NCBI GenBank assembly: GCA_020060625.1 | Contig: JAGUZU010000087.1 | Coordinates: forward strand, 8,500 to 72,499 | From: Anaerolineales bacterium | Lineage (GTDB): Bacteria; Chloroflexota; Anaerolineae; Anaerolineales; Villigracilaceae | DNA: 64,000 bases | Direction of reading: 5' to 3' | Part shown: piece by piece, positions 3,769 through 60,930 of the stretch | How the letters are laid out: each line of letters starts with the position of its first letter | Position numbering within the stretch: the stretch's first letter is position 1 | The notes under the pieces: generated by a model | Told to the model about the DNA's origin: nothing | The model's input: the letters and a program-made list of their open reading frames with translations, nothing else | The model's database searches: none | Program-made: the position numbers and the translations under genes

Positions 3769-3790
3769 TTAGGTTTTGAAAAGCGGACTT

Positions 3791-3819
3791 TGCTATAATC
3801 AATTTATTCATTGATGAAT
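3791..3819 (+). promoter_or_regulatory. Extended -10 (TGCTATAAT) followed by a 14-nt palindrome ATTCATTGATGAAT (possible operator) upstream of the response-regulator gene
   Basis: TGCTATAAT at 3791-3799. Perfect inverted repeat ATTCAT-TG-ATGAAT at 3806-3819. About 50 nt upstream of the ATG at 3871. Confidence 0.35.
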
Positions 3820-3870
3820 TCATTCCCACATCCGCGCGGACACCCTGCCGGATGACAAGGACAGGAATTT

Positions 3871-4935
3871 ATGGATCGTAAAATTTTGATCGTGGACGAC
3901 CAGCGGGACATCATTCGGCTGCTTCATTCGACGCTGGATGCGCTCAAGAACGACGACCTCAAAATATTCGAAGCCCCGTCAGGTGAGGAAGCGCTTCTCG
4001 AATCCACCCGCCATTCCATAGACCTGCTTATCGCCGATTACAAACTCCCCGGCATAAGCGGCGTGGAACTCATGCACAAGGTGCGCGCCCGCCACCCCGA
4101 GGTCAAGGTCATTTTCATCACCGGCATGACCGATAAAAAAATGCGCGACGAAATGCTCAACGCGGGCGCGCTTGCCGTTTTCGACAAACCCATCCCCATG
4201 GCGGATTTTCTGGATGTGGTCGAACGCGGGCTGGGACTCGTCCAAACCATCTTTCCCTCCGAACCGCGGGGCGAACAAGTGGAAGAACGCCACAGCCGCG
4301 TCTCTGATCTGCTTGCCAACTTCAGGCAGGATGTCAGCGCTGATGCGGTTTTCCTGCTCAATGACCGCGGGCTGGTGCAGGCGCGCACAGGCTCCCTGCA
4401 CGACTCCAGCATGGAAGTTTCGCTCATCTCCTCCTTGATGGCGATCCATACTGCCAGCCTGAAGGTCGCCCGTCACAACCATCAGGAAATGCCGAATGCC
4501 TACCACGTCTTCAGCGGCGGAGATCACGACCTACTCTTCATCCCCGTCACGCCGCTTTACGCCCTGCTCGTCGCCGGGGTGGGACTCGTCACCGAGGAAC
4601 GCATCCTTGAAACAATTGGCGGACTGAGCGCATTGCGAGGCGAAATTGAAAAGGCGCTCAAATCCATGGGCGTGACCGGCGAATTAAAGACCGCTTCGGA
4701 ATCCGCGCGAAAACCTGCTCCCAAAAAGCAAACCGACCAGCTCGCCCAAGCCGCTCCCGCCCCTGAAATGGAAGCCTTGCTCAACCAGGCTGTCACCAAA
4801 AAGACGAAAATCCAAAATGCGGACGATTTTTGGACGCAAGCCGCAGAAAAACATGCCGCAAAACCCGCCAACGAAGATGTTATTACATTGGAGGAGGCTC
4901 GCAAACTCGGCATCATTCCCGGTGAAAAGCAATAA
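3871..4935 (+). CDS. Response regulator: CheY-like receiver plus uncharacterised C-terminal domain (roadblock/LC7-like suspected) and a Lys/Ala/Pro-rich tail
   Basis: ILIVDDQRD, DLLIADYKLPGISG, VIFITGM receiver motifs. No recognisable DNA-binding output. Confidence 0.8.
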   Translation: MDRKILIVDDQRDIIRLLHSTLDALKNDDLKIFEAPSGEEALLESTRHSIDLLIADYKLPGISGVELMHKVRARHPEVKVIFITGMTDKKMRDEMLNAGALAVFDKPIPMADFLDVVERGLGLVQTIFPSEPRGEQVEERHSRVSDLLANFRQDVSADAVFLLNDRGLVQARTGSLHDSSMEVSLISSLMAIHTASLKVARHNHQEMPNAYHVFSGGDHDLLFIPVTPLYALLVAGVGLVTEERILETIGGLSALRGEIEKALKSMGVTGELKTASESARKPAPKKQTDQLAQAAPAPEMEALLNQAVTKKTKIQNADDFWTQAAEKHAAKPANEDVITLEEARKLGIIPGEKQ

Positions 4936-4960
4936 AACTGTGATAAAATCTTGCCCGCAC

Positions 4961-8569: not shown

Positions 8570-9754
8570 TCATTTCGCGCTTCCGGCGGAAGGCCAGCCC
8601 TGCGGTACGCCTTTTTTACTCCAATTCAAAACGAATATCCAGGCTGCAAGCAGGACGACGGGTTTCATCAACCGCCAGAGCAGGATTTGGAACCACTTCC
8701 ATTTGAAGGAATAGACGACCTGGGCAATAACCCAGCGCGCGAACAGGGTTTGACCAAGCCCGCTTCGTACCAGCCGACGCTTGTACCTGCTGAATGAGAA
8801 TTCGCCACGCTGAAACGACTCGGCGATCTCCTGCGCGGCGACCGCGCCGCAGCCCAGCGCCATGCTGATGCCTTCGCCGAAGACCGGGTCCGCGCCGACG
8901 GCATCGCCAACGAGCAGCACGCGCGGAACGGACGCCTTGTTCCACGGGCTGTACCAGCGGATGGGGTGACCTTTGATTTCGTACTCGTTCAAGTCGAAGC
9001 CGCGGCGTTTCATCTCTTCGGCGAGCGGTTCTTTCAATGCCGGGCGTTTCCGGTCTGCGAGCAGGTTTGTATCGTAGACGCCCCAACATCGCATGGACTG
9101 ACCCTTGACCTGCGTGGGGAAGTCCCAGACGTAGCCTGCGATGTTGTTGGGAACGGGGAAGAAATCGAAGAACGCCACCCCCTCCCGTCCTCCACCAATA
9201 CTGGGGGAGGGTTGGGCGGGGGTCAAAACTTCCAATACCCTTGCCGTGTAAACGGGATCGTTTGGAAAGATACAGCGACGTGTGACTCCATTCGAACCGT
9301 CCGCGCCGACGACGACCTGTGCGCGAAATTCTCCTTGATCGGTTTCGACGATAGCGCAATCTTCACGCGGCTGAACACTTTTTACAACGATTCCCTCTCT
9401 AATCTCTATTCCCCTGCCCTCTGTTTTTTTTGCCAGCCAGTGATCGAACTCGTCGCGGCGGATGATGCGGATGGCGTGACGCTTTCGGATGCGGACGTTC
9501 AACCCTTTGCCTGCGAAGTCGAAGCGCGCGGATTTGGCATCCACGTGCGGGACTTCGCTCACGTCCAGCCCGAGGCGTTCGAGGATGATCTCGGCGTCGA
9601 TAACCAGCCCGCCGGCGCAAAGTTTCAGGCGTGGATAATGTTCCTTTTCGAGAACCAGGATGCGGGGAGTGAGAGGCGGGGCAAACTTTGCCAGATGAAG
9701 CGCAGTGGAGAGTCCGCCCGGTCCGCCGCCGAGGATGAGGATGTCTTTATCCAT
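8570..9754 (-). CDS. FAD-dependent oxidoreductase, geranylgeranyl-reductase-like, with hydrophobic C-terminus
   Basis: ILILGGGPGGLSTA dinucleotide-binding motif, VVGADGSNGVTRR, LVGDAVG. Start taken at MDKDILIL (ATG 9754-9752), which overlaps the upstream stop as TGATG. The listed ORF extends to 10069 over the upstream gene. Confidence 0.8.
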   Translation of the reverse strand: MDKDILILGGGPGGLSTALHLAKFAPPLTPRILVLEKEHYPRLKLCAGGLVIDAEIILERLGLDVSEVPHVDAKSARFDFAGKGLNVRIRKRHAIRIIRRDEFDHWLAKKTEGRGIEIREGIVVKSVQPREDCAIVETDQGEFRAQVVVGADGSNGVTRRCIFPNDPVYTARVLEVLTPAQPSPSIGGGREGVAFFDFFPVPNNIAGYVWDFPTQVKGQSMRCWGVYDTNLLADRKRPALKEPLAEEMKRRGFDLNEYEIKGHPIRWYSPWNKASVPRVLLVGDAVGADPVFGEGISMALGCGAVAAQEIAESFQRGEFSFSRYKRRLVRSGLGQTLFARWVIAQVVYSFKWKWFQILLWRLMKPVVLLAAWIFVLNWSKKGVPQGWPSAGSAK

Positions 9755-11121
9755 CACGCATACGCGCCGGACCAGGTCTCGAAGCGCCGCCCATCGTGTT
9801 CTTCCGGCGTGTAGAACGTGAGGTAGGTGAGCGCCTGGTACGGCACGAACTTTTGTTCCCTGGGGTTTTGAATGGCGAGGTCGTAATAGGAATGCCACGT
9901 GCCTGCGTTGAAATAGACCTGGCTTTCGGGGTTTGAGGCTGCAAAGGTCATTCCCAGCGGCACCACTTCGTAATGATGCGTATGCCCGTACACGATGTGC
10001 TGGGCTTTGCCGTTGAGGTAAAACGGCTCTTTCAACGCATAATTGGCGAAAGAATGTTTTCCGCCCCACATCTTCTTGCGCACCCAGATGACGACATCGT
10101 TGATGGTCGAGAAGGAGGCGCGCCCTGAGATCTTCACGATCAGTTCCATCGCGTCCACCACATCGAAGCGGAAGGCTTTATCCGCTTCGCGCACGAAATC
10201 CATTTGCAGAAATTCATCGGCGATCTCGTCCCAAACCTGCTTCAACTCATCCTCCAGCGGATGCTCGCCGGCGTAGTGGCGGATCTGTCCGCTGATCCAC
10301 AACGGCGCCGCCAGCACCGGGCGGATGTTGGCGATCTTGCGCAAACTGTCTATGATGCCGGAGGGCAGCAGGTCGCCGTACCGTTTTTGCACTTCCACCG
10401 GAAAGCGGTTGCAGACGTCCATGGTGAAGGCGTCGCCGACCGTGCCGTGGTCGCGTCCCTTTTCCTTATCGAAGTTGAACTTGTCGTACATGTCGCCGTG
10501 CCGCGCAAAGACTTTATGACGCTCGAACAACTCTTGCAGGAGCGGGGATTCATCCGCTTCATACGGGAACGGGGAGGCTGGGTTGCTCAACCCCATCCTT
10601 TGAATCATCTCGAGGCGGATTCTGTCGAAGGCTTCGCCTTTGAGGTGGTAATACCAATCGTGGTTGCCCACCATGTAATGGATGCGTACTTTGAGCGGAA
10701 TCTGCTCTGCGGTTTGGAAATCGGGCTTGCCGTCGCGGGTGGCGGGCGCGAGTTGAATCTTTTCTCCGCTGGCGAGGCGGCGCAGGATGTCCATGGCTTC
10801 CTGATTTTCATCGAGGATCGCGCGTGTGACTTCGAGAAGCTTGGGCGCATAATGCGGATTGGACGGATCGGACCAGGGTCGGATGTAGTTGGAATCTCCG
10901 GGGGTGGTATCCAGCCAGCGGGTGGAGTGAAGCGGGTCGAGGACGTCGCCCATCAGGAGGACATCGAGGTTTTCGATGGGGCGGTATTTTCCGTCCTTGC
11001 GAACGGATGCGAAGCGGGCGGTTTCGGTGAGGCGGCGCGCGAACAGCCGAAACGCGCTGGCGGAAATTGAATCGGCGGTGGTTCCGTCTCCAAGGTGAAG
11101 GTCGCTGACGATGACTAACAT
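9754..11121 (-). CDS. Calcineurin-like metallophosphoesterase (455 aa)
   Basis: VSDLHLGDG, LLMGDVLD, MVGNHDWY, VYGHTHH motifs in canonical order. Confidence 0.85.
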   Translation of the reverse strand: MLVIVSDLHLGDGTTADSISASAFRLFARRLTETARFASVRKDGKYRPIENLDVLLMGDVLDPLHSTRWLDTTPGDSNYIRPWSDPSNPHYAPKLLEVTRAILDENQEAMDILRRLASGEKIQLAPATRDGKPDFQTAEQIPLKVRIHYMVGNHDWYYHLKGEAFDRIRLEMIQRMGLSNPASPFPYEADESPLLQELFERHKVFARHGDMYDKFNFDKEKGRDHGTVGDAFTMDVCNRFPVEVQKRYGDLLPSGIIDSLRKIANIRPVLAAPLWISGQIRHYAGEHPLEDELKQVWDEIADEFLQMDFVREADKAFRFDVVDAMELIVKISGRASFSTINDVVIWVRKKMWGGKHSFANYALKEPFYLNGKAQHIVYGHTHHYEVVPLGMTFAASNPESQVYFNAGTWHSYYDLAIQNPREQKFVPYQALTYLTFYTPEEHDGRRFETWSGAYA

Positions 11122-11174
11122 GATTTCTCCTCGGCGTGAATTATAGCGCGATTGACTTGGCTGACCGCATGTTT

Positions 11175-11298
11175 GTTGGATGATAAGGAAAAGCCTTGTG
11201 GTGAGCGAAGCCGAACCATCCTCCCCGGGCAGGATTTCGACATTCCCTTCGGTCGCAACCTACCAGATTGGGAATTGGAAATCCGCGAAGCGGTATAA
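11175..11298 (+). pseudogene. Internal fragment of a TIR-domain gene (codons equivalent to WLDKEK...LLPGQDWELEIREAV), interrupted by short insertions
   Basis: Nucleotide and peptide similarity to 14752-14815 of the full-length TIR gene and to 12113-12212. No start codon of its own. Ends in TAA inside GGTATAAT. Confidence 0.7.
11194..11220 (+). repeat. 27-nt insert CCTTGTGGTGAGCGAAGCCGAACCATC inside TIR fragment (copy 1 of 2)
   Basis: Same insert at the same codon position in the fragment at 12135-12161 (2 mismatches). Absent from the full-length gene. Confidence 0.75.
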
Positions 11299-11304
11299 TT
11301 GTCA
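11292..11304 (+). promoter_or_regulatory. Conserved cassette left end GGTATAATTGTCA (contains a -10-like TATAAT)
   Basis: Identical 13-mer at 13090-13102, in both cases at the junction between a TIR fragment and the first cargo gene. Confidence 0.4.
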
Positions 11305-11322
11305 TTGTTCAGGAGAAAGACA

Positions 11323-11541
11323 ATGACTGTTTATCCACATCCATACACAAAAAAAATTTCCCAGGAAATCGAAAAGACACCAGATGAGTATTTGCCCGCC
11401 TTATTGGAAATGATTCGCCTGTTCCGTGAGACCGTGACACTTAAACCCGCCGACGAAAGTTTTGCGCAGGGCTGGAAAGAGGCGATGAACAACGAATTGC
11501 TCCCGCTCGATCAACTTTGGGAAGGGATAGATGCCCGATAG
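11323..11541 (+). CDS. Small hypothetical protein (72 aa), antitoxin-like, first gene of the hicBA cassette
   Basis: ATG at 11323 preceded by AGGAGA. No family recognised. Confidence 0.5.
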   Translation: MTVYPHPYTKKISQEIEKTPDEYLPALLEMIRLFRETVTLKPADESFAQGWKEAMNNELLPLDQLWEGIDAR

Positions 11542-11565
11542 CCTAAAGTGAAAAGAGGCAGTTTT

Positions 11566-11763
11566 ATGAAATACAAAATCCGACTCGAAGAAACAGACGA
11601 GGGCTTTGCCGTTTGGGTTCCTGGCTTGCCAGGTTGCTGGTCGCAGGGAGAGACGGAAGAGGAAGCCATCGAAAACATCAAGGACGCGATCAAAACATAT
11701 CTCGAAACCATTGAAATCTTGAACCAGAATGAGGAAACCCGCATTGTGGAGGTTCCAGTTTAA
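11566..11763 (+). CDS. hicB: HicB-family antitoxin
   Basis: MKYKIRLEETDEGFAVWVPGLPGCWSQGETEEEAIENIKDAI is the UPF0150/HicB N-terminal signature. Listed ORF starts at 11548. Confidence 0.8.
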   Translation: MKYKIRLEETDEGFAVWVPGLPGCWSQGETEEEAIENIKDAIKTYLETIEILNQNEETRIVEVPV

Positions 11764-11765
11764 TC

Positions 11766-11978
11766 ATGCCCAAATTGGCGGGAATTCCACACCAGCGGGC
11801 GGTAAAAGCATTCGAGAAAGCGGGGTTTCGCGTCATCCGCGAAGGGAAACATATCTCGATGGCAAAAGATGATCGTATTATCATCATCCCGCGCAATAAC
11901 CCGATCAACGCCTTCACCATGGGCGGAATTATCAAGGACGCGGGGTTGACCATCGACGAGTTCAAGAAATTGTTGTAA
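11766..11978 (+). CDS. hicA: HicA-family mRNA interferase toxin
   Basis: KAFEKAGFRVIREGKHISM...IIPRNNPI...IIKDAGLTIDEFKKLL matches the YcfA/HicA pattern. Starts 2 nt after hicB. Confidence 0.8.
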   Translation: MPKLAGIPHQRAVKAFEKAGFRVIREGKHISMAKDDRIIIIPRNNPINAFTMGGIIKDAGLTIDEFKKLL

Positions 11979-11980
11979 CT

Positions 11981-12212
11981 ATGACAACAGATAAACGCCC
12001 CCTCAAAGTCTTCCTGTGCCATATTATCCCCTTGTGGGACGCCCACGCGGACCGTGACGCCGTCCGCGCACTGCCGTAGGACGCGCCTGACGGACGATGG
12101 CGTGGACCGCTTCGCGTGGCTGGACAAAGAGAAACCTTGTGGTGAGCGCAGTCGAACCATCCCCGGCGCGGACTGGGAATTGGAAATCAAAAAAGCCGTG
12201 CGCGAAAAGTGA
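11981..12212 (+). pseudogene. Decayed 5' part of a TIR-domain gene (MTTDKRPLKVFLCH ... WLDKEK ... DWELEIKKAVRE)
   Basis: Own ATG. A roughly 18-nt insertion after CH, a premature TAG, a frame change and the 27-nt insert. Collinear with codons 1 to about 65 of the full-length gene. Confidence 0.75.
12135..12161 (+). repeat. 27-nt insert CCTTGTGGTGAGCGCAGTCGAACCATC inside TIR fragment (copy 2 of 2)
   Basis: See 11194-11220. Confidence 0.75.
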
Positions 12213-12225
12213 GTATAATAAAACC

Positions 12226-12489
12226 ATGACCACTTATACGCGAAAACGCCCCACGTACAAAACGGCTTTGGAACTGGCTCGCCAATTATCTCTGCGGGAC
12301 CAGCGGCGTTTGCGCGCGGAACTGGCAAGATTGTCTTCAACCAGATTCGTGCGTCCGTCCCGTGATCCCAAGGTCAGGCGTTCTGCGCTTCTGCTTGCAA
12401 ACGAGATACGAAAAACAGTGCAGTCTGCCACGGCAAAACAATCGCTTGATGATGGGATGCGCCAATTGCGGGGACGTTCATGGTCGTGA
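12226..12489 (+). CDS. Putative antitoxin (87 aa, basic) partnered with the following PIN gene
   Basis: ATG at 12226. 10-nt overlap with the PIN gene. No family recognised. The listed ORF 12097 start runs through the TIR fragment. Confidence 0.5.
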   Translation: MTTYTRKRPTYKTALELARQLSLRDQRRLRAELARLSSTRFVRPSRDPKVRRSALLLANEIRKTVQSATAKQSLDDGMRQLRGRSWS

Positions 12490-12935
12490 TCGACTCGGAT
12501 GTATTGCTTCTGGCTTTTGCATACCCCAACGATGACCGCCAGAGTGTAAATTTGAAATTTCTTGAAGCCGTTCAAACTGCCCAGCCTGCCACCACGATCT
12601 ACAACGTGATGGAAGTCCTTGGGCAGTTGTCTTTTAATCTTTCGGAAGAACAATTGGAAGGCTGGCAGGATTGGCTTGTCAATGCCTACAATCTGACCGT
12701 TATCTGGGACGCCGACTCAAAAGAGAAAATTGACCCTGAAACGTGGCGCGAAATCATTTACGAGCGTCCATTTCAGAAAATGCGAAGTGCCCGCATGGCG
12801 TTCATGGATGCCTTGATTATTTCGGCTACGGAATATGCTCCAGATGTGGATTGTTTCGTGACGTGGAATGCCAAACACTTCAAAGGAAAAACGGATTTAA
12901 CGGTTTTGACCCCCGAAGAATATTTGGCAAGATAG
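12480..12935 (+). CDS. PIN-domain ribonuclease toxin (VapC-like)
   Basis: Acidic quartet candidates VIDSDVLL, NVMEVL, FMDALI, TWNAKHF. Confidence 0.7.
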   Translation: MVVIDSDVLLLAFAYPNDDRQSVNLKFLEAVQTAQPATTIYNVMEVLGQLSFNLSEEQLEGWQDWLVNAYNLTVIWDADSKEKIDPETWREIIYERPFQKMRSARMAFMDALIISATEYAPDVDCFVTWNAKHFKGKTDLTVLTPEEYLAR

Positions 12936-12963
12936 TTTTCATTACCACCAAAACGGGACGGAT

Positions 12964-13074
12964 ATGACCGAGACCAAGCGACCTCTGAAAGTATTTTTAT
13001 GCCACGCCCACGCGGACCGGGACGCCGTCCGCGCACTATACACGCGCCTGACGGACGATGGCGTGGACGCATAA
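12964..13074 (+). pseudogene. 36-codon 5' stub of a TIR-domain gene (MTETKRPLKVFLCHAHADRDAVRALYTRLTDDGVDA-stop)
   Basis: About 87 percent identical by eye to the stub at 13840-13950, including about 14 nt upstream (AAAACGGGACGGAT). Stop codon sits where the intact gene continues with TGG. Confidence 0.8.
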
Positions 13075-13089
13075 CCCCATAATTTGGGC

Positions 13090-13102
13090 GGTATAATTGT
13101 CA
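13090..13102 (+). promoter_or_regulatory. Conserved cassette left end GGTATAATTGTCA (second copy)
   Basis: Identical to 11292-11304. 11 nt upstream of the PIN gene ATG. Confidence 0.4.
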
Positions 13103-13113
13103 CTGGAATTCAA

Positions 13114-13557
13114 ATGACCAAAATCTATCTCGATACATGCTGTCTTAATCGCCCATTCGATGACCAAACTCAAGAGAGGATTCGTCTTGAGGCGGAAGCA
13201 GTATTGGCAATTCTGTCTCGAATTGAAAAAGGTGACTGGGATTGGGTTGGAAGCGATGTATTGACTGACGAGATCGAACAGACGCCAGACACTCAAAAAT
13301 TAAGCCGCTCAAAATTGCTGTCAGGTTTCATTGATGAAAATGTGGAGATCGGCGAAAAAGAAATCAAGCGAGCGGCAGAATTACAGAAAGCAGGCTTTCA
13401 AATCTTCGATGCCTTGCATCTTGCCTCTGCTGAAAGCGCAAACGCGGACGTTTTTCTTTCGACCGATGACCGCCTGTTGAAACTGGCGAAACGAATATCG
13501 AAACGATTGAAAATACGAGTAATGAACCCTCTTGCCTGGGTAGAGGAGATGATCTGA
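13114..13557 (+). CDS. PIN-domain toxin
   Basis: IYLDTCCLNRPFDD, FDALHLASAE, FLSTDDRL motifs. ATG at 13114 (listed ORF from 13084). Confidence 0.7.
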   Translation: MTKIYLDTCCLNRPFDDQTQERIRLEAEAVLAILSRIEKGDWDWVGSDVLTDEIEQTPDTQKLSRSKLLSGFIDENVEIGEKEIKRAAELQKAGFQIFDALHLASAESANADVFLSTDDRLLKLAKRISKRLKIRVMNPLAWVEEMI

Positions 13558-13778
13558 TGAATGCACAAACAATGTCTCTTGAACAAATCCGCATCGCTGG
13601 CATGGAAGCGCTGGCGCGTGAACTTGGTATTGTGGGTATGGTGCGCTTCCTCCAGCAATTTGAAACGGGACACGGCGACTACTCCAAAGATCGCCACAAA
13701 TGGCTCGACGACCAAGACTTGGATACCATTGTCAAGCGGATTCAAGAGAAAAGGGAAACCAACAAGAAAGCGAAATAA
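13557..13778 (+). CDS. Putative antitoxin (73 aa) overlapping the PIN gene stop (TGATGA)
   Basis: Start overlaps upstream stop. Small helical protein (LEQIRIAGMEALARELGIVGMVRFLQQFETGHGDYSKDR). Family not identified with certainty. Confidence 0.55.
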   Translation: MNAQTMSLEQIRIAGMEALARELGIVGMVRFLQQFETGHGDYSKDRHKWLDDQDLDTIVKRIQEKRETNKKAK

Positions 13779-13839
13779 CCTGAAACGGCGCGTTCCTTGT
13801 GGTGGCGCGTCGTTTTTCATTCACTAAAACGGGACGGAT

Positions 13840-13950
13840 ATGACCGAAGCCAAGCGACCATTGAAGGTATTTTTATGCCATGCCCACGCGGACCGGGACG
13901 CCGTCCGCGCACTGTACACGCGGCTGACAAACGATGATATGGACGCGTGA
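13840..13950 (+). pseudogene. 36-codon 5' stub of a TIR-domain gene (MTEAKRPLKVFLCHAHADRDAVRALYTRLTNDDMDA-stop)
   Basis: Direct repeat of 12964-13074. Breaks at exactly the same codon. Confidence 0.8.
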
Positions 13951-13965
13951 CAAAAAGGCGGAATT

Positions 13966-14583
13966 ATGAATTGGGCAGATGAAAACCAGGAGTGGAAAAG
14001 ACAGCAGGAACAAAAGGTAAAGACAAAAGAATCGCGAGAAAAATTTAAAGCAGCTTCTGGCAATACTGCTGAATGGAATCGCGTATACAAAAATTATCTT
14101 TCTTCTCAAATCTGGCGAGAAATAAAGAGAAGGAAATTCAAACAAGTGGGGTATAAATGTGAAAGATGTGGAGCCGAATATATTAATGAGGCTGGATTGC
14201 AAGTTCATCATCTAAACTATGATCGCGTAGGTGGGCTTGAAAGGGATGGCGATCTTCAAATTGTTTGTGCAGGGGAATGTCACGAAGACGCCGATGAAGA
14301 ACGGGTTGAATCTGAGAGAAGATACGCAGAATATGAGCGTTGGTTTGAAAATTGGGGTACAAAAGTATATAAAGATGAGTGGGCAATGAAGAAATATGAT
14401 GATGAAATGCAAATGCGTGAAGAGTTTTGTGAATACGCCTATAAAATATGGTGTAAAAAGAACAACAAGGCTTATCGGTCTTATTTGAAAATCCCTGATG
14501 AATTTGTTGAATTGCTGGAGAGTGGCTTGTATGATGAATACGAAGAAGAATCTTATGATGACGATTTTTCTTGGTATAGGTAA
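13966..14583 (+). CDS. HNH-endonuclease-like protein with acidic C-terminal tail
   Basis: YLSSQIWREIKRRKF..CERCG...LQVHHLNYDRVGGLERDGDLQIVCAGECH is the phage-type HNH layout (CxxC ... HH ... CxxCH). Visibly AT-rich. Confidence 0.65.
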   Translation: MNWADENQEWKRQQEQKVKTKESREKFKAASGNTAEWNRVYKNYLSSQIWREIKRRKFKQVGYKCERCGAEYINEAGLQVHHLNYDRVGGLERDGDLQIVCAGECHEDADEERVESERRYAEYERWFENWGTKVYKDEWAMKKYDDEMQMREEFCEYAYKIWCKKNNKAYRSYLKIPDEFVELLESGLYDEYEEESYDDDFSWYR

Positions 14584-14644
14584 TCAACTAGAAAACTTCT
14601 TTTCAGTTGTATAATTTCGTTACTCCTTAGCGGGAAACCTCCCT

Positions 14645-15825
14645 ATGCCCGAACCCAAGCGCCCCCCCTCAAAGTCTTTCTCTGCCACGCACACAGCGAC
14701 AAAAATGCAGTGCGCTCTTTATATTCGCGTCTTAAGCGGGAAGGTGTTGACGCCTGGCTTGATAAGGAAAAGCTTCTTCCAGGTGCAGATTGGGAATATG
14801 AAATTCGCAAGGCTGTACGTGAAGCAGATGTAGTGGTGGTTTGCCTCTCAAAGCAGTTCAACCAAGCGGGGTTTCGACAGAAAGAAGTACGCCTTGCCCT
14901 TGATACCGCCATGGAAAAACCCGAAGGCGAGATTTTTATCATCCCTGCGCGCTTGGAGGAATGTGACAATCTCGAAAGCCTGAGAAAATGGCATTGGGTG
15001 GATTTATTTGAATCAGACGGTTATCAAAGCCTTGCGAGTACATTGAAAGCGCAGGCAGAGAAAGTCGGTGTAACCTTACAGATGAAACGTTCCAGAAAAT
15101 CGAAACCTATTGTGCAACTGCAGAAGAAACAGGGCATTTCAGAAAAAGCGATTTCATCAAGTGGCGTGGGGATTGGTGATGGAGTGTCTGAAAGTGTAAT
15201 TGTTACAGGTCATGGAAACGTTATCAATTTTGGCAATTCTGTGAGTTTTCCACCTTCCGAGAAACCAGAACAAGGCTCTGTTAAAACGAACTTGCATATT
15301 CAGTGGGTACCAACGGATGAATTGTATGATGGAAAGCCATACATAAGTATTGACATAACAAACAGGGAAAATCGCCTTGTCAGATGTCGTTGCTATATCA
15401 AGTCTTTGGGGCTAAACGGAATTACCCGTGACGACATAAAGCACGAAATTGTAAAGCATACAAATCGAGTTTCGTGGTCAGGTGGTTCAGATGAGGAAGT
15501 AGGAATTAAACATATTGATCCAAGGGGCTTCGGGAGAATAAATTTGGCGTCTTTGGACTCCCAAGATTTTATTCGGCGTCCTTTGCAGTTTGAAACCGCA
15601 AAGGGTGCTCAATTCAAAGACAAAGATGGTAGATACTTACCGTTTGGGAGATACATGGTTGAACTTGGATTGGCTTGTAGCGCTGATGGGAGAGATTTTA
15701 CGGAGATACCCATCAAGATAGGATTTGAATATATTGAGGAAAGAGTTCCCTTTGAGGATGATAGAATAAAAAACGGAATAACGATAAATAGAGTATTACG
15801 TCTTTTGGAAATAAAGCCAAAATAA
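14645..15825 (+). CDS. TIR-domain protein with uncharacterised beta-rich C-terminal domain. Reading frame broken in a C7 tract (14662-14668)
   Basis: ATG 14645 (MPEPKRPP) is in frame 2. The TIR core PLKVFLCHAHSDKNAVRSLYSRLKREGVDAWLDKEKLLPGADWEYEIRKAVREADVVVVCLSKQ...FRQKEVRLAL is in frame 1. The ORF track therefore splits it into 14645..14833 and 14710..15825. All fragment copies carry C5 at this position. Confidence 0.75.
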
Positions 15826-15852
15826 TTTGGTGAGACGATAAATCAGTAAAGC

Positions 15853-15933
15853 ATGGATACTAACAAACGCCCCCTCAAAGTCTTCTGCCACGCCCACGCG
15901 GACAAGCCGAAGGTGATGGAACTCCAGCTTTGA
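15853..15933 (+). pseudogene. 26-codon stub of a TIR gene 5' end (MDTNKRPLKVF-CHAHADKPK...)
   Basis: 21-nt identity AAACGCCCCCTCAAAGTCTTC with the fragment at 11991. One codon deleted, then diverges. Confidence 0.65.
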
Positions 15934-16006
15934 ACCGCAACTCAGATGGAGAATGGACTCAACCCCATTCTCCATCTTCCATTACCCATCAGTTATAATC
16001 CCCCCG

Positions 16007-16046
16007 CAACTTCAAACTGAATACTGACCACTGGTTACTCAAAACT
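16007..16046 (+). repeat. Heptamer array (nnACTnn) x6 forming the leader of the orphan glyQS 5' copy
   Basis: caacttc aaactga atactga ccactgg ttactca aaactat: strict 7-nt phasing of ACT, running into the ATG at 16047. Confidence 0.7.
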
Positions 16047-16108
16047 ATGCCTTCCTCTTTCCAATCCATCATCCTCAACCTCCAAGACTTCTGGGCATCG
16101 CACGGATG
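16047..16108 (+). pseudogene. Orphan 5' end of glyQS ([20 protein letters not shown])
   Basis: Collinear with 16904-16975 of the intact glyQS ([22 protein letters not shown]). Homology stops at CACGGATG, 2 nt before the vapC stop codon. Confidence 0.85.
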
Positions 16109-16110
16109 GG

Positions 16111-16515
16111 TTACATCGCTCTTAACAGATCAATGAATTCGCGCGCAGTGATGATGGGGATTTCTCTGAACGAGCTGATTTCCAGCAGGTGATTATCCCC
16201 GCTGACAACGTAATTTACTTTCCCAGCCACTGCCGCTTCGAGAAATTTATTATCTGTGGGGTCAGCCACGATGACAAGAATTTCCTCTTCTGGCGTAACG
16301 AACTCGGCGATTCGCAAAAGATAATCGGTGGCGGCAATAATTTCGCTTTTCGGGATTTTGAATTTTGGGCGATTGATAACATCCAGATATTCATGTGCAA
16401 CCGCTTCTGTCACAATCAGTTTGAATTTCCCCGCTTTCCATTCGTCAATGATTACGCCCAATCTTCCGCCCAACGTGGCGGAAATAAAAATATTTGTATC
16501 CAAAACCACGCGCAT
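16111..16515 (-). CDS. vapC: PIN-domain toxin VapC
   Basis: VVLDTNIFISA, TEAVAHEY, VADPTDNKFLEAAV, VSGDNHLL motifs. AT-rich. Confidence 0.8.
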   Translation of the reverse strand: MRVVLDTNIFISATLGGRLGVIIDEWKAGKFKLIVTEAVAHEYLDVINRPKFKIPKSEIIAATDYLLRIAEFVTPEEEILVIVADPTDNKFLEAAVAGKVNYVVSGDNHLLEISSFREIPIITAREFIDLLRAM

Positions 16516-16748
16516 TATTTGCCGTCCCGTACCGCGCGGATTTCGGCCTCTATGTCTTCATCGGTAATGTTCATTTCTTGCGCCCGCGCGCGTATGGATT
16601 TCAAGGCTTTATCGAAGCGTTCTTCCAGTTCTTTTTCTTCGGTTGGAATGCTTAATTTTAAGTAGCGAATAAAAGCCAGCACGTCTGCATAACGGGTTTC
16701 TGGCAACGTGGAAATTTCAAGCATGATGGTTTGTTCTAAATTGGTCAT
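16515..16748 (-). CDS. Antitoxin partner of VapC (77 aa)
   Basis: Stop overlaps the vapC start by 1 nt. Small acidic helical protein. Confidence 0.6.
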   Translation of the reverse strand: MTNLEQTIMLEISTLPETRYADVLAFIRYLKLSIPTEEKELEERFDKALKSIRARAQEMNITDEDIEAEIRAVRDGK

Positions 16749-16852
16749 GTTTCACCTCGTTAAAATTATTATACCTGCAATAAATGCCCTCGAAACAGAA
16801 CCAATTTCCACCGTCGCGTGAAACGCAAATCTTCCATCACCTTTCCATCAGT

Positions 16853-16858
16853 TATAAT
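16853..16858 (+). promoter_or_regulatory. -10 hexamer TATAAT of glyQS (duplicate copy at 15994-15999)
   Basis: CATCAGTTATAATCCC block conserved in both glyQS upstream copies, about 45 nt before each ATG. Confidence 0.45.
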
Positions 16859-16861
16859 CCC

Positions 16862-16903
16862 ATCCGTAATCCAAAATCGTAAATCTGAAATCGAAAATCC
16901 TAC
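16862..16903 (+). repeat. Heptamer array (ATCnnnA) x6 forming the whole glyQS leader
   Basis: atccgta atccaaa atcgtaa atctgaa atcgaaa atcctac then ATG. Exactly 42 nt, no Shine-Dalgarno motif. Confidence 0.75.
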
Positions 16904-19900
16904 ATGACACAAAAAGCCTCTTTCCAATCCATCATCCTCAAACTACAAGACTTCTGGGCATCGCACGGATGCCTGATCACACAGCCCTACTACACCCAGG
17001 TTGGCGCAGGGACGATGAACCCTGCCACCTTCCTGCGCGTGCTCGGACCCGAACCGTGGAACGTCGCCTACGTCGAGCCGTCTGTCCGTCCCGATGACGG
17101 GCGTTACGGCGAGAACCCCAACCGCTTCCAACTCCACACTCAATTTCAGGTCATCCTCAAGCCCGACCCCGGAAACCCGCAGGAACTCTATCTCGAGTCG
17201 CTCAAAGCCCTCGGCATCGACCCGCGCCAGCACGACATCCGCTTCGTGGAAGATAACTGGGAGCAACCCGCCATCTCCGCCTGGGGCTTGGGCTGGGAGG
17301 TCTGGCTCGACGGACAGGAGATCACGCAGTTCACCTACTTCCAGCAGATGGGCGGCGTGACGCTCGACCCCGTCTCGGTTGAGATCACCTACGGTCTCGA
17401 ACGCATCCTCATCGCGCTCAACAACGCCAAAGCCATCTGGAACGAAGAGTTCGGCGCAGGCGTCACCTATGGCGAGATCCGCCGTCAGGAAGAGTTCGAA
17501 CACTCCAAATATTATTTTGAAACCGCCGACATTGACCGCGTCCGCGCCATGTACGATCTCTTCTCCGCCGAAGCCGACGCCTGTCTCGCCGCCGGTCTCA
17601 TCGTCCCCGCGCACGACTACGTCCTCAAATGCTCGCACTCCTTCAACATCCTCGACACTCGCGGAGCCATCTCCGTCGCCGAACGTCAAGCCTTCTTCCG
17701 CCGCATCCGCGAACTCGCAAGGGGAGTGGCGCTCGCGTATGAAGAGCAGAGGAAGAATCTTGAGTATCCGCTATTGAAAGAAAAGGGAATAGTGAATAGT
17801 GAATTGGGCAAGGCATCCCTTCCTATTCCCCATTCCCCATTACCTTTCTTGCTTGAAATCGGTGTCGAAGAACTTCCAGCAGACGACGTCAATACCGCCT
17901 ACGCAGCCTTATCTGCCCGTGTGCCGACTCTTCTCAAGGAACTGAATCTCACTCATGGCGACGTCCGCATCTTCACAACCCCGAGGCGGATTGTCGTTTC
18001 AGTAGCCTCTCTCTCCCCGAATCAGCCTGACCGCGAAGACCTTGTCAAAGGTCCCCCCGCCGACAAAGCCATTGTAGGACAAGGCTCTGCCTTGTCCACC
18101 CCCGCCGAAGACGTAAGTCGGATTGCCAATCCGACCTACACTCAGGCGGCGATTGGCTTCGCCAAAAAGAACGGCATCAACGTCGAAGACCTGCAAGTCC
18201 GCGAAGAAGGCAATAACAAATACGTCTTCGCCCTCGTCAAGCAGACTGGACGCCCCACGCCCGAAGTCCTCGCCGAAGCATTGCCCAAGTTGGTGGCGGA
18301 TATCAAGTTCGAGAAGTCCATGCGCTGGAACGACTCCGGCGTCTCCTTCTCGCGTCCCATCCGCTGGTATGTGGCTCTGCTCGGTGACATGGTCATCCCG
18401 TTCGAATATGCTGGCGTCGTTTCTGGCAACGTCTCTCGCGGACTCCGCCCCTACGACTCGCCAGAGATCAAAATCACATCCGCCGACAAATACTTCGACA
18501 TCATCCGCGAAGCGGGCATCATTCTCGATAAAGAAGAACGCAAAGCCGCCATCGTGGAGCAAGTCAAACAAGCCGCGGCGCTGGTCGGCGGGGAAGCCAT
18601 CATCGAAGACGGTTTATTAAACGAAGTCACCAACCTCATCGAATTGCCCACCGCCGTTATGGGTGGATTCAACGAAGAATTCCTTTCATTGCCGCGCGAT
18701 GTGTTGATCTCGGTGATGAAGAAACACCAACGCTATTTTCCAGTTCAAAGTTCAAAGTCGAAGGTTGCAGGTTCGTCTGACCTTCAATTTTCAACCTTCA
18801 ACCTTTTACCCAATTTTATAGCCATCCGCAACGGCGACGACATGCACATCGACACCGTCCGCGAAGGAAACGAACACGTCCTCGGCGCGCGCTTTGCGGA
18901 TGCGAACTTTTTCGTCCGTGAAGATGTGAAACTCAAGCTCGAAGAATATCGCCCGAAACTTGCTTCGCTGACCTTCCACACCAAGCTCGGCTCCATGCTC
19001 GATAAATCCGACCGCATGTTGAAACTCGGCGCGGAAATCGGCGCAATGCTGGGTTACAAGAAGGATGACGTGACCGGCATCAAAAACCTTGCGCGCGCGG
19101 TCTATCTCTCCAAAGCCGATTTGGTCACGCAGATGGTCACCGAAATGACGTCCCTGCAAGGCATCATCGGCGGAGAATATGCCTTGCGAAGCGGCGAAGA
19201 CCCCGAAGTGGCGCAGGCGATTGCCGAACAGTATCAAACCGTGCCGGGATCGAAGATCGGTCTCGCGCTTGCGCTGACAGACAGGCTTGACTCCCTCATC
19301 GGTCTTTTCGCGGCGGGACTCGCTCCCACCGGCGCGAAAGACCCGTTCGGTCTGCGCCGTGCCGCGATTGGAGTCGTCCAGCCGCTCATCGAACATGACG
19401 TGGACTTCGATCTTGCGGAAGCGATCAAGAAATCCGCCATGACTCAACCCATTGAAGTCAGCGATGAAGCGCAGGCAAAAATTCTGGAATTTATCGCGGG
19501 GCGTCTGTCTGTGGTGTTGAAAGATGCAGGCTACAAACATGACGTCGTCGAAGCCGTGCTGGCGGCGTGGCGCCGCGGCGCCGCTAACCCGGCGGCGTCT
19601 GCCCGGGCGGTGAAGCAGTTGTCGGCTTGGGTCGGAGGCGAAGACTGGCGCGAAATCCTGCCTGCGTTCGCGCGTTGTGTCCGCATCACCCGCGATCAAA
19701 AACAGACGTTCAAAGTGAACGAGAATGCCTTTGTCGAAAAAGAGGAAAAGGATTTATTCAAGGCGTTGGAGAAGGCGGAAAAGTCCAAACGCGCCGAAGG
19801 CTCGGTGGATGATTTCCTGAATGCTTTCGTGCCGATGATTCCCGCTGTCAACGCCTTCTTCGACAAAGTGCTGGTGATGGCGGAGGATGTAAAGGTCAAA

Positions 19901-19981
19901 GAGAACCGGCTTGGCTTGTTGCAGCGCATCGCCGCGCTCGCAAGCGGCATTGCCGACCTGAGCAAACTCGAAGGGTTCTAA
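16904..19981 (+). CDS. glyQS: Glycine--tRNA ligase, fused alpha and beta subunits
   Basis: N-terminal GlyQ ([17 protein letters not shown]...YFQQMGG...) through about residue 290, a linker, then GlyS ([13 protein letters not shown] ... [10 protein letters not shown] ... [11 protein letters not shown] ...). Single 1025-aa ORF. Confidence 0.92.
17786..17848 (+). repeat. 63-nt heptamer array (9 x 7 nt = 21 codons) forming the GlyQ-GlyS linker
   Basis: ggaatag tgaatag tgaattg ggcaagg catccct tcctatt ccccatt ccccatt acctttc. Left units (GAATnGT) and right units (CCnATTC) are roughly complementary. Confidence 0.65.
18743..18805 (+). repeat. 63-nt heptamer array (9 x 7 nt) in frame inside the GlyS part
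   Basis: gttcaaa gttcaaa gtcgaag gttgcag gttcgtc tgacctt caatttt caacctt caacctt. Encodes [21 protein letters not shown] between the conserved QRYFP and LPNFI motifs. Confidence 0.65.
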
Positions 19982-55206: not shown

Positions 55207-56175
55207 TCATACCAGCGCTTTGCTGATGGCTTTACGCGGGGCGGCGTACAGGTCAATTTCGATGGCGGAAAGCAGGATTTGAATTCCAAGAATGACGGCA
55301 AGCGTCGGCAGGATGACCGTGCCGGTGGGCGCGGCAATACCCAGTTTGGCGTATTGGATCCATTTTGTGACGCCGAAGATGAGACCGAATAAAAGGAGCG
55401 GGACGCCGGTTGCAAAATAAATGGAGATCATCGAAAAATCGAAGATGAAATATTTGAGGACGATGCGCCTCAAAAGCGTGCGCGCGAGTTTGAACGGAAA
55501 TTGGAACAAAACGCGGCGGATGGAAAGACTGGAAGTTTCGTTTCCGTAACGGGCGGGGATGGTCACGTCCATGACGAAGGCATCGAGCAGGTAGAGGTGT
55601 GAGAGCATGGACGTTTCAAAGAAATAGCCCTTGTCTATTTTCTCGAGGGGGATCTGCGCCAGCACATCGGCGCGGATGGCGAAATAGCCGTTGGTCGGGT
55701 CGAAGAGATTCCAGTAGCCGGTGGCGGCTTTGGTAAGGAAACTCAAACCGAGGTTGCCGATGCGGCGGATGACGGGCATCTGTTGCAGGGCGTGAAAATC
55801 GCGGAAGCGGTTGCCCTTTGCGTAATCGGCGCTGCCCTCGATGAGCGGCGTGATGAGCGCGGGGATGCGCGCCGGGTCCATCTGCCCGTCGCCGTCCACT
55901 TTGACGACGATCTGCGCGCCGAGTTCCAGCGCCTTGCGAAAGCCGGTGAGCATCGCGCCGCCCACGCCCTGGTTTTGCTCGTGCCGGATGAGGCGGATGC
56001 GTTTGTCCTTTTTGGCGGAGGCAGTTACGAGGTCCGCGGTAGAGTCGGGCGAAGCGTCATCCACCACGATGATGGCGCGGACATAGGACGGAATTCCGCG
56101 CAAAACGGCTTGGATGTCCCGCTCCACGCGGTAGGCTGGGATGACGACGGCGATTTTGAATCTCGAAAAACGCAT
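55207..56175 (-). CDS. Family 2 glycosyltransferase with C-terminal TM helices
   Basis: VVIPAYRVERDI, VVDDASPDST, VKVDGDGQMDP motifs. Start at MRFSRFK (56175), since the listed 56304 start would overlap the divergent gene. Confidence 0.85.
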   Translation of the reverse strand: MRFSRFKIAVVIPAYRVERDIQAVLRGIPSYVRAIIVVDDASPDSTADLVTASAKKDKRIRLIRHEQNQGVGGAMLTGFRKALELGAQIVVKVDGDGQMDPARIPALITPLIEGSADYAKGNRFRDFHALQQMPVIRRIGNLGLSFLTKAATGYWNLFDPTNGYFAIRADVLAQIPLEKIDKGYFFETSMLSHLYLLDAFVMDVTIPARYGNETSSLSIRRVLFQFPFKLARTLLRRIVLKYFIFDFSMISIYFATGVPLLLFGLIFGVTKWIQYAKLGIAAPTGTVILPTLAVILGIQILLSAIEIDLYAAPRKAISKALV

Positions 56176-58980: not shown

Positions 58981-59008
58981 GATAAGGTAGCAACTTAGTA
59001 CCTTATCA
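58981..59008. repeat. Perfect 9-bp palindrome GATAAGGTA-n9-TACCTTATC. Its right arm is the left copy of a 14-nt inverted repeat bracketing the nuclease islet
   Basis: TTAGTACCTTATCA at 58995-59008 and its reverse complement at 60842-60855. GATAAGGTA also recurs directly at 60843-60851. Confidence 0.7.
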
Positions 59009-59066
59009 ATGAAATTCTTGTTTTTTGCCTGCACTGTGACGCAGGCACACGTGTGCAAGGTTTTTT

Positions 59067-59130
59067 CCACCACAGAGAACACGGAGATCACGGAGAAACC
59101 CTTTTTGAAATCTCTGTGCGCTCTGTGGTG
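59067..59130. repeat. Hairpin repeat of the CACCACAGAG family
   Basis: CCACCACAGAGAACACGGAGATCACGGAG ... TCTCTGTGCGCTCTGTGGTG. Confidence 0.7.
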
Positions 59131-59368
59131 AAATCTCTTTCGGCTTGTCCGAGTTAGGTTATTCCAATTAAAAATGCTGCCGCCGGGAAACCCAGCGGCA
59201 GCTTTCGCCAAAGGAGGAGACAGGGGTGAGCATTGGAGGTGTCTTCTTGCCGTCTCCTGATTCATGTTAATCCATGTTTCTCTTTTTCACCATGTCAAAT
59301 GTCACAGATTGAAAGTGATAATATTCACAAACTGTCACAGGATATTCAAAAAGTCTTTTGTCTTGAGG

Positions 59369-60842: not shown

Positions 60843-60930
60843 GATAAGGTACTAAAGAAAGCCCCGCCCAACCCTCGATAAACAACTTCGAACTCGCGTC
60901 CGCCGGTGATGGAACAGGCAAAATAAACGT

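Follow-up and report, generated by a model that had tools for sequence, protein, structure and literature searches.

We analysed a 64,000-nucleotide stretch of an Anaerolineales genome (Chloroflexota; GenBank assembly GCA_020060625.1, contig JAGUZU010000087.1, positions 8,500 to 72,499), hereafter the window, focusing on the interval between a metallophosphoesterase-like gene (MPE) and glyQS. This interval forms a low-GC island (38%–50% GC, compared with 55% for the whole window), in which truncated 5' ends of TIR-domain genes alternate with small operons, mostly of the toxin-antitoxin type. An earlier reading of the same sequence (the original prediction) had described six pieces of one TIR reading frame alternating with such cargo. 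The features, in order along the window, are as follows:

9754–11121, minus strand: MPE core gene, an open reading frame (ORF) with a weak Metallophos match; conserved left border of the hotspot
11152–11298, plus strand: piece 1, a decayed TIR remnant with codons ~37–58 only (WLDKEK...DWELEIREAV); ORF and profile match, an internal piece, at 11263–11294 (profile positions 139–170)
11294–11978, plus strand: cassette 1, with TATAAT (11294), a small ORF (11323–11541), hicB (11566–11763) and hicA (11766–11978); Pfam matches
11981–12212, plus strand: piece 2, decayed TIR codons 1 to ~60; ORF and profile match at 11982–12207 (profile positions 2–178)
12214–12935, plus strand: cassette 2, with TATAAT (12214) and overlapping genes for a putative antitoxin (12226–12489) and a PIN-like toxin (12480–12935); ORFs
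12946–13075, plus strand: piece 3, a 130-nt repeat (repeat family D1) made up of 18 nt upstream and an intact 36-codon stub (12964–13074) ending in GVDA-stop; profile match at 12964–13072 (profile positions 1–109)
13092–13821, plus strand: cassette 3, with TATAAT (13092), PIN toxin (13114–13557; Pfam PIN, E = 9e-8), antitoxin (13557–13778), and a hairpin with a T-run
13822–13951, plus strand: piece 4, the second copy of the 130-nt repeat (87%–88% identity to piece 3) with an intact 36-codon stub; profile match at 13840–13950 (profile positions 1–111), the extent of the stub
13966–14583, plus strand: HNH-type nuclease gene with weak HNH matches and without a TATAAT of its own
14610–15825, plus strand: long TIR copy (Pfam TIR_2, E = 1.8e-27) with TATAAT (14610) and ATG (14645), frameshifted; profile match at 14645–15065 (profile positions 1–419), the copy continuing to 15825
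15853–15933, plus strand: piece 6, a 26-codon stub lacking the Leu codon, followed by a hairpin and no cargo; ORF and profile match at 15858–15907 (profile positions 6–58)
15965–16108, plus strand: orphaned glyQS 5' module (repeat D6/D4), with TATAAT (15994), a 'type 1' 5' untranslated region (5'UTR), ATG (16047) and 21 codons
16111–16782, minus strand: vapBC cassette, with PIN_3 toxin (16111–16515; Pfam PIN_3, E = 2.5e-20), antitoxin (16515–16748) and its own TATAAT
16783–19981, plus strand: functional glyQS (fused GlyQ-GlyS, 1025 aa; coding sequence 16904–19981) with a 'type 2' upstream region and TATAAT at 16853; conserved right border of the hotspot
Plus strand: six TATAAT boxes, at 11294, 12214 and 13092 (directly after pieces 1, 2 and 3) and at 14610, 15994 and 16853 (before the long TIR copy, the glyQS orphan and glyQS)

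A DNA profile made from the 5' ends of five full-length TIR genes detected exactly six elements in the window, all on the plus strand and all where the original prediction had placed its TIR pieces; the back-translated KRPLKVF motif occurs four times, compared with 0.01 expected from 100 shuffles. The pieces are not one reading frame copied six times, as had been supposed. They come from different alleles with 72%–90% identity (87% between pieces 3 and 4, 90% between pieces 2 and 3, and 72%–73% between piece 3 or 4 and the long copy), and the stubs are GC-richer than the long copy. Because the stubs stem from alleles unlike the long copy, the bodies of the TIR genes must also have been replaced. 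Piece 1 has a ~60-nt hairpin-containing insertion in a loop, and its ORF is closed by the TAA of the TATAAT at 11294, while piece 2 is disrupted by a frameshift and by an in-frame stop at 12077 and has gained 18 nt after LCH and 21 nt in the loop.

The long copy, previously described as full length from 14645 to 15825, is frameshifted. A run of seven C at 14662–14668, where the other copies have five, puts the ATG at 14645 out of the TIR frame, which is open from 14584 to 15825 and has its first start codon, a GTG, at 14710. Since the seven-C run recurs unchanged in at least five independent assemblies, whose contigs are 100% identical across it, the frameshift is genuine rather than an assembly error, and it leaves the strain without any intact TIR gene. 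The tract is either a fixed pseudogene lesion or prone to slippage. Some 250 aa without any match come after the TIR domain, PADLOC and NCBIfam matches being confined to the domain itself (residues 2–130), and no partner gene of Thoeris or another named TIR system (e.g. ThsA, SAVED or pAgo) adjoins a TIR copy.

Among the cargo originally named, hicBA (Pfam HicB_lk_antitox, E = 2.6e-11; HicA_toxin, E = 2.9e-8) and the PIN gene at 13114–13557 have clear family matches. Neither protein of cassette 2 matches a family, its supposed PIN toxin (12480–12935) being PIN-like by motif alone, and the HNH signal of the protein encoded at 13966–14583 is weak (Pfam, 0.013; PADLOC ZorE HNH, 3e-8; IscB HNH region, 1e-6). 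By family, the type II toxin-antitoxin cargo of the window comprises HicA/HicB, PIN and PIN_3, with the pair at 12226–12935 lacking a family match. The small ORF of cassette 1 weakly matches the C-terminal part of the RelN antitoxin. The HNH gene is the lowest-GC part of the island (38%–40% GC) and was seen only in contigs identical to the window.

The array is not confined to the window. Species-representative genomes scanned with the MPE protein yielded 56 loci (these and the metagenome loci are prefixed L below), the closest of them in metagenome-assembled genomes (MAGs) of Anaerolineales, where MPE orthologues with 66%–92% identity border comparable arrays. The order of MPE, array and glyQS recurs in relatives with enough flanking sequence, in about 10 related MAG species and also in long MAG contigs of 0.2–4.9 Mb. 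Comparison of syntenic loci, which had been proposed as a check, recovered both empty sites and different cassette orders:

L014, between MPE and glyQS: at least four stubs, a 503-aa TIR gene, then glyQS
L055, between MPE and glyQS: five stubs
L016, between MPE and glyQS: stubs, decayed and intact TIR genes, and a RAYT-like gene
L021, between MPE and glyQS: a TIR stub, a glyQS pseudo-fragment and a further TIR gene
L006, between MPE and glyQS: stub, hicBA, TIR gene (244 aa), TIR gene
L007: carries stubs
L013: empty site, about 320 nt from MPE to glyQS
L015, L011 and L012: no TIR gene between MPE and glyQS

A 24-nt stub motif scanned against metagenomes matched at least 120 contigs. The motif had no match among the viral contigs of IMG/VR, and a viral origin of the stubs was rejected on that basis. 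Across 128 loci, the profile found 346 TIR-5' elements, 54 of which span to the end of the TIR domain while 259 are stubs. Up to nine elements occur per contig, always on one strand, with glyQS downstream on the same strand wherever the contig reaches it. The spacing from one element start to the next is bimodal, at either 100–300 nt (stub beside stub, 82 cases) or 600–1100 nt (room for one toxin-antitoxin pair). Tandem full-length TIR paralogues are also present in relatives, with two in each of L006, L129 and L150 and two to three in L130 and L143.

Survivors of the TIR genes are 5' ends only, and hardly any stub in the 128-locus set ends at codons 70–135. Where a locus has stubs as well as intact TIR genes, 46 stubs are upstream of the last intact gene and 11 downstream, the intact genes usually occupying the glyQS-proximal end of the array. 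Orphaned 5' ends arranged as direct repeats between cassettes, as originally described, are a feature of both the window and its relatives. These repeats also appear to be substrates for recombination, as had been suggested. Contig pairs that are 96%–99.9% identical differ by whole units, with switch points in identical stretches inside stubs; L064 and L091, and likewise L091 and L163, differ by ~1-kb cassettes, and L096 and L132 by a 186-nt stub unit. Among contigs sharing at least 96% identity, homology breaks off at 36 internal points, 25 of them within stubs of both partners, although stubs account for only 12.5% of the sequence. The breakpoint positions vary along the stubs, which is a signature of homologous recombination and not of a fixed crossover site. 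Taken together, these contig comparisons are consistent with homologous exchange through the conserved segment that needs no dedicated recombinase. Loss of cassettes was also seen among near-identical contigs, and identical cassettes (a DUF433 pair, hicBA and a PIN/antitoxin pair) stand behind different stub ends; in L008, the DUF433 pair occurs without any stub.

Each stub looks like the beginning of a formerly working allele. The ratio of nonsynonymous to synonymous substitution rates (dN/dS) was 0.18 among alignable stubs, compared with 0.20 among intact genes, and of 174 stubs with a recognizable start, 129 have an ORF that runs unbroken as far as the junction, both sets being filtered toward intact, alignable copies. 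An earlier test of codon-position diversity was partly circular owing to a regular-expression filter and was superseded by the dN/dS analysis on a looser set, itself still biased toward intact stubs. Stub decay is visible as microhomology deletions, frameshifts and small hairpin insertions. An in-frame insertion of 21–60 nt in the TIR loop (..KPCGERSRTILPGQGFD..NLP..), with the hairpin GTCGAACC...GGTTTCGAC, is common among stubs (window 11190–11262 and 12135–12160; also L055, L064, L132, L104, L119 and L007) and was found in none of the five full-length genes of the profile set. The 18-nt insertion of piece 2 (12014–12033) reads ATTATCCCCTTGTGGGAC; in L055r (2224–2290 and 3755–3830), the same sequence forms a 19-nt inverted-repeat pair flanking a 19-nt core, CCCACGCGGACCGTGACCC, whose presence in both orientations suggests a small inversion.

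Orphaning of 5' ends is not specific to TIR genes, since glyQS 5' ends are orphaned likewise. The end of the originally described region, 16108, is a genuine boundary, and it is in fact the end of a seventh stub, which had been overlooked: the glyQS promoter, 5'UTR and first 21 codons (15965–16108) are repeated at 16783–16971, with vapBC between the copies. The coding overlap is identical at 53 of 55 nt while the two 5'UTRs are of different types, which indicates that foreign DNA with its own glyQS start came in and that the segment was not duplicated in situ. The orphan module is 90% identical to the upstream region of glyQS in L014, while the upstream region of the functional gene resembles L055, L013 and L021, homology to L055 beginning at 16783. 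The N-terminus of piece 6 (..DKPKVMEL) is similar to that of the 503-aa TIR protein encoded beside glyQS in L014, and by these similarities, piece 6 and the glyQS orphan look like remains of an L014-like TIR-glyQS segment. Orphaned glyQS starts were found in at least five further locus types, and their end codons are scattered across loci (21 in the window, then 37, 51, 54 and 76). In L108 and L112, the orphans that were checked, a minus-strand toxin-antitoxin pair comes next. The loci L112, L083 and L178 share a glyQS orphan and a ParE-like pair with L108 and L179, followed either by a 10.4-kb insert or by glyQS directly; the insert carries TIR stubs, a PIN/antitoxin cassette, a gene for a 1267-aa NTPase-like protein and other genes, and no integrase.

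Cargo clusters across relatives belong overwhelmingly to type II toxin-antitoxin families, namely DUF433 with a PIN-like toxin, VapBC, HicAB, MNT/HEPN, DUF2442/DUF4160, Fic/Doc, RelE, ParE and DUF4258. The cassette 2 pair is found between stubs at eight further loci (clusters 5 and 6), and the cassette 3 type in at least eight, always with the terminator followed by a 'type A' stub 61–88 nt downstream. In the window, 2 nt separate the hicA stop from the TIR ATG that follows, and such coupling at 1–3 nt is shared by L055 and L006, the TIR gene being full length in L006. Rarer cargo includes larger defense-like genes and IS200-like genes of the RAYT (repetitive extragenic palindrome [REP]-associated tyrosine transposase) type. 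These Y1 transposase genes lie between stubs at L016r (4412–4951), L069, L075, L079 and L111, and the Y1_Tnp match of such ORFs, at 4–5 loci, is weak. REP-like palindromes (GTAGGGGCGAC..GTCGCCCCTAC) occur near the RAYT-like genes, one of them inside an L006 stub.

Our favored interpretation, held with roughly even confidence, is that the region is a recombinase-free accretion array at a conserved MPE-glyQS hotspot in Anaerolineales, built by homology-anchored sequential displacement. New modules, mostly type II toxin-antitoxin pairs and in some cases a nuclease or a new TIR allele, would enter before the resident TIR gene or before glyQS, bringing their own -10-type promoter. Entry would be anchored in shared sequence, either the conserved first 110–180 nt of TIR genes or the glyQS 5' end, and each entry would orphan the previous 5' end (start codon and 20–60 codons) upstream. 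Stubs next to cassettes would then act as portable homology arms, such that RecA-type recombination of one stub with another or with a TIR gene could delete, duplicate, transfer and reshuffle units. The intermediate may be a circle that loops out and re-enters by a single crossover, or a linear molecule whose second crossover falls in glyQS or in a further stub. Rare illegitimate joins, through homology-facilitated illegitimate recombination (HFIR) or microhomology, would create new junctions. The stubs would afterwards decay by small deletions, frameshifts and hairpin insertions, while toxin-antitoxin addiction would favor retention of the added units. We infer the circular or linear form, the dependence on RecA, the role of addiction and the origin of the first junctions.

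The original prediction had instead favored serial Campbell-type insertion of circles into one persistent gene, with the TIR 5' end as a special landing pad. Neither part agrees with the present results: the alleles behind the stubs differ from that of the long copy and are richer in GC, and orphaned glyQS 5' ends occur not only in the window but also in at least five further locus types. The same data would be accounted for equally by a double crossover, or by linear DNA recombining at one end (HFIR-type), and judging from the sequences of the pieces, such events probably suit the window better than repeated Campbell insertion.

Several observations weigh against sequential displacement as outlined above. 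Stub ends cluster at codons ~36–43 and ~57–62, which homologous recombination with random illegitimate joins does not predict; the peak at codons ~36–43 consists partly of alignments broken by loop insertions, although many of its ends are genuine. A GGACG(C)GTGG motif, a candidate Chi-like or pause site, is located immediately 3' of each of the two zones. Of the 172 unique junctions, 44% have an exact TATAAT no more than about 30 nt away, a share that is 61% where cargo follows and 2% at random positions, and the TAA of the box is often in frame and closes the stub ORF. The same cassettes have been joined independently to stubs at both end zones, which hints at a more specific process. Cargo-free stub units are common, as the 82 short spacings show. 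In the window itself, the repeats are 87%–96% identical with perfect runs of only 22–29 nt, and recombination between such short and diverged homologies is expected to be inefficient. No variation was found within the window strain, all public contigs being 100% identical. Moreover, contig counts are not independent owing to shared ancestry, and the metagenome sample was picked by the stub motif itself.

With regard to the -10-type boxes, the window contains 10 exact TATAAT on the plus strand, six of them in the 11–17 kb region. None of these six has a recognizable -35 element, and because that element is absent, a sigma-70 consensus scan did not pick up the junction boxes; promoter-like sites were no more frequent than in shuffles. 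A -35 element supplied by the stub (TTGGAA/TTGGGA) was considered and rejected, as its spacing to TATAAT varies from 13 to 27 nt. Cargo-free tandem units start at the -10 box. The junction of GGCGTGGAT with TGAGCGTTATAAT precedes three different cargos that share a ~35-nt promoter/UTR module. These regularities could go back to a few founder junctions that recombination has since propagated, to counter-selection of longer TIR fragments, to illegitimate joining that prefers -10 boxes because they melt easily, or to a dedicated enzyme acting in trans.

Two further elements accompany the stubs. A ~75-nt imperfect palindrome composed of four (A/G)CGGAC and four GTCCG(T/C) repeats is present at L014r (243–316 and 2179–2252), L159, L142, L108 and others. 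Its clusters lie within 100 nt of stubs only (15 of 15), often upstream of the TIR promoter, and a related GCGGAC-N9-GTCCGC repeat is carried by the stub coding sequence. The palindrome may be an operator or a protein-binding array. A cluster of the CGGAC motif at window positions 56032–56099 turned out to be ordinary coding sequence. The second element, hairpin-rich and 57–115 nt long, joins a stub ending at codon 38 to one resuming at codon 13 with in-frame readthrough; it occurs at L132 (oriented; 1275–1390 and 3560–3620), L064 (55–110), L163, L086 and L121 and has no Rfam match.

A dedicated site-specific system encoded in trans (integron-like, Xer-like, or a Y1/HUH system such as a RAYT-like one), inserting promoter-to-stop cassettes with the stubs as attachment sites, would account for stub ends in two narrow zones, for the 22-fold enrichment of TATAAT at junctions, and for the one junction sequence that is identical before three different cargos. 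The cassettes are also minimal units in either orientation (vapBC extends 2 nt beyond its toxin stop, to the edge of the glyQS stub, and at the other end some 16 nt past its -10 box on the upstream side), IS200-like Y1 transposase genes are among the cargo at 4–5 loci, and the CGGAC palindrome is always beside stubs. We nevertheless consider such a system unlikely. The original prediction that the island lacks an integrase, a transposase and an attC-like core agrees with our searches: no integrase or transposase was seen between MPE and glyQS in the window, which was not annotated protein by protein, and no recombinase was seen across more than 120 loci or in the 10.4-kb insert of L112 and L083. 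IntI-type recombinase genes are absent between MPE and glyQS in the window and in related loci, and no Y1 transposase was seen in the window; cassette ends have no common hairpin. When the TIR and glyQS repeats were folded on both strands, neither did better than shuffles (z of -0.5 to -1.5 for the 130-nt TIR repeats; z > 0 for the glyQS repeat), which led us to reject an attC-like structure. Inspection of the junctions revealed no common core, the offset from stub end to TATAAT ranging from 0 to about 28 nt and stub ends varying within their zones, and no conserved 28-mer among about 170 junctions. One cassette type has a sequence (GTGCGCGAG..TGTATAAT) loosely like E. coli dif, which is not conserved and was rejected as a Xer/dif-like core, with the proviso that E. 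coli dif may not match that of the host phylum. Restriction-site or palindrome junctions were not consistent either. An Rfam search of the array and six related loci found flanking tRNAs only, and no known RNA or ribozyme family. No cognate integrase with an identical att core was found in the arrays; the scattered glyQS stub ends, which differ between loci, and the spread of breakpoints along the stubs both argue against fixed attachment sites.

In a third scenario, nothing was inserted: tandem full-length TIR paralogues lying among toxin-antitoxin operons lost their bodies by deletion, with selection sparing promoters and purging harmful partial TIR domains. The existence of tandem paralogues in relatives is consistent with this, as are piece 6, which keeps its native downstream sequence with no cargo on its right (a plain internal deletion), several short stubs that look like longer ones after microhomology deletion (L014 s1 and L006), and the ongoing decay of the long copy in the window. 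Such decay should, however, leave 3' and internal fragments too, whereas essentially only 5' ends are found, with bimodal end positions. It also does not explain why glyQS, an essential single-copy gene, has 5' orphans with a foreign-type promoter and UTR, why intact genes are mostly glyQS-proximal, or why near-identical contigs differ by stub-bounded cassettes, and we regard it as rather improbable. The view that the stubs are functional, either as 36–63-aa half-TIR peptides modulating TIR assembly or as regulatory DNA (GCGGAC-N9-GTCCGC) kept by selection, would fit the many ORFs open to the junction, the low dN/dS, the in-frame stop often provided at the junction, and the restriction of CGGAC-repeat elements to the neighborhood of stubs. 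It is very unlikely given that about a quarter of stubs overall are broken (pieces 1 and 2, for example) and that arrays hold up to nine copies with variable ends; a low dN/dS is equally expected from recent membership in a working gene and was obtained on a set filtered for intact copies. Finally, short-read contigs of the window strain tend to break at stubs, as might be expected of collapsed or chimeric repeats. An assembly or binning artifact is hardly credible, though, as the 8.3-kb array is 100% identical among independent JGI and Logan assemblies and the same layout is found in long contigs of many MAGs.

A variant in which the stub, from the -10 box to TIR codon ~40 or ~60, is a true recombination module seems improbable to us as well. 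Here, an as yet unknown process, possibly linked to transcription initiation or guided by an enzyme, would join gene 5' regions to melted -10 boxes. If this were so, the clustered ends, the junction TATAAT with its in-frame stops, the cargo-free units and the CGGAC palindromes would be products of one mechanism, which together with RecA-driven exchange would amount to an integron-like, integrase-free system whose 'attC' is the 5' end of a defense gene.

Two observations concern the surroundings of the array. Exact-protein look-ups for MPE, VapC and the HNH protein returned only 100%-identical copies of the window array, and the exact GlyQS protein had no record. In L002–L004, from other samples, MPE is 99.6%–99.9% identical to that of the window, with complete divergence directly past the MPE stop (window 9754–9757) and another gene in place of the FAD-dependent oxidoreductase, which marks a second strain-level recombination boundary. 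Elsewhere in the window, a second low-GC island (59000–61000, 37%–45% GC) encodes a PLD-family nuclease (59976–60842; DrmC-like in PADLOC) and two ORFs without a family match and may be another defense islet.

If sequential displacement is correct, displacement logic would reach beyond polymorphic toxin genes, and any conserved gene start could serve as a portable homology arm. Operons such as addiction modules and defense genes could be stacked, kept and traded at a fixed site without a mobile-element enzyme, a simple general route to toxin-antitoxin and defense islands in lineages poor in classical mobile elements, and one that would explain why islands of this kind lie beside essential genes such as glyQS. 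The arrays would be a readable record of successive TIR alleles, and the two preferred truncation points and junction -10 boxes would offer handles on how illegitimate joins are chosen in vivo.

Among known systems, integrons and CALINs (clusters of attC sites lacking integron integrases) share with these arrays co-oriented cassettes of about 0.6–1.1 kb separated by mutually similar repeats of 110–180 nt, toxin-antitoxin cassettes with their own promoters, and apparently polar insertion near one array end. The attC sites are imperfect palindromes that fold into hairpins, with R''/L''-L'/R' boxes and a GTTRRRY core, and CALINs lack IntI and attI. In contrast, the repeats described here are coding 5' gene ends with variable boundaries and without an attC fold or core triplet, IntI is absent, and the arrays occupy one chromosomal locus in one bacterial order. 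Xer dif/pdif modules have 28-bp XerC-spacer-XerD sites at both ends. CIME-type (cis-mobilizable) elements and tycheposon islands, the latter with partial tRNA repeats, depend on a tyrosine or other integrase acting at a defined att core, usually at the 3' ends of tRNAs or other genes. As in these elements, a gene end is duplicated as direct repeats around cargo, the incoming copy restores the target, and degenerate repeats mark earlier events. The duplicated glyQS end around vapBC, with an intact downstream copy, has the arrangement known from integrase-driven accretion, whereas no integrase or core was found here and the units are single operons. Core-gene-flanked defense hotspots likewise hold a variable low-GC island of defense or toxin-antitoxin genes between housekeeping genes and are empty in some relatives; to our knowledge, ordered strings of orphaned 5' gene ends have not been reported from them. 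A limited search of open-access papers found no description of arrays of 5' stubs and toxin-antitoxin operons or of TIR arrays in Anaerolineae, and as far as this search shows, the widespread array type is undescribed.

The suggestion that such arrays are without precedent is not supported as far as the model itself is concerned. For type VI secretion system (T6SS) effector-immunity arrays, HFIR followed by spread through normal homologous recombination has been proposed (Kirchberger et al. 2017, PMC5361080). Those arrays, like the ones here, grow stepwise at a chromosomal locus by a conserved anchor and illegitimate joining without an integrase, keep older units since their loss is costly (immunity there, antitoxin here), and later spread whole by homologous recombination. 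In T6SS arrays, however, the anchor lies upstream and orphan immunity genes lie downstream of the effector, whereas here the 5' stubs are upstream and the units kept are addiction modules without a known tie to TIR function. For Rhs proteins, the same model as that originally offered for the window had already been proposed, in which a circle with a core fragment and a new tip enters by a single homologous crossover and shunts the old C-terminal tip aside (Jackson et al. 2009, PMC2935791). Arrays of Rhs and contact-dependent inhibition (CDI) genes also consist of an intact gene beside a string of fragments of varying length, each with part of the conserved segment; the conserved and incoming parts differ in GC, no recombinase is present, and homologous recombination via the shared segment has been proposed. 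Co-oriented tandem fragments sharing a segment with a long gene, as expected of an Rhs-type array, are present in the window (six TIR-5' elements), while the downstream orphans with C-terminal tips and immunity genes that such an array should have are not, stubs lying mainly upstream. Here, in a mirror image of Rhs/CDI arrays, the conserved segment is the 5' end with start codon and upstream region, the orphans are upstream with the intact gene at the 3' end of the array, the cargo consists of separate self-promoted toxin-antitoxin operons instead of swapped in-frame toxin tips, and an unrelated housekeeping gene, glyQS, behaves likewise. Since the displacement logic has clear precedents in Rhs and T6SS arrays, we regard the arrays not as a new category but as an extension of that logic to the 5' ends of genes.

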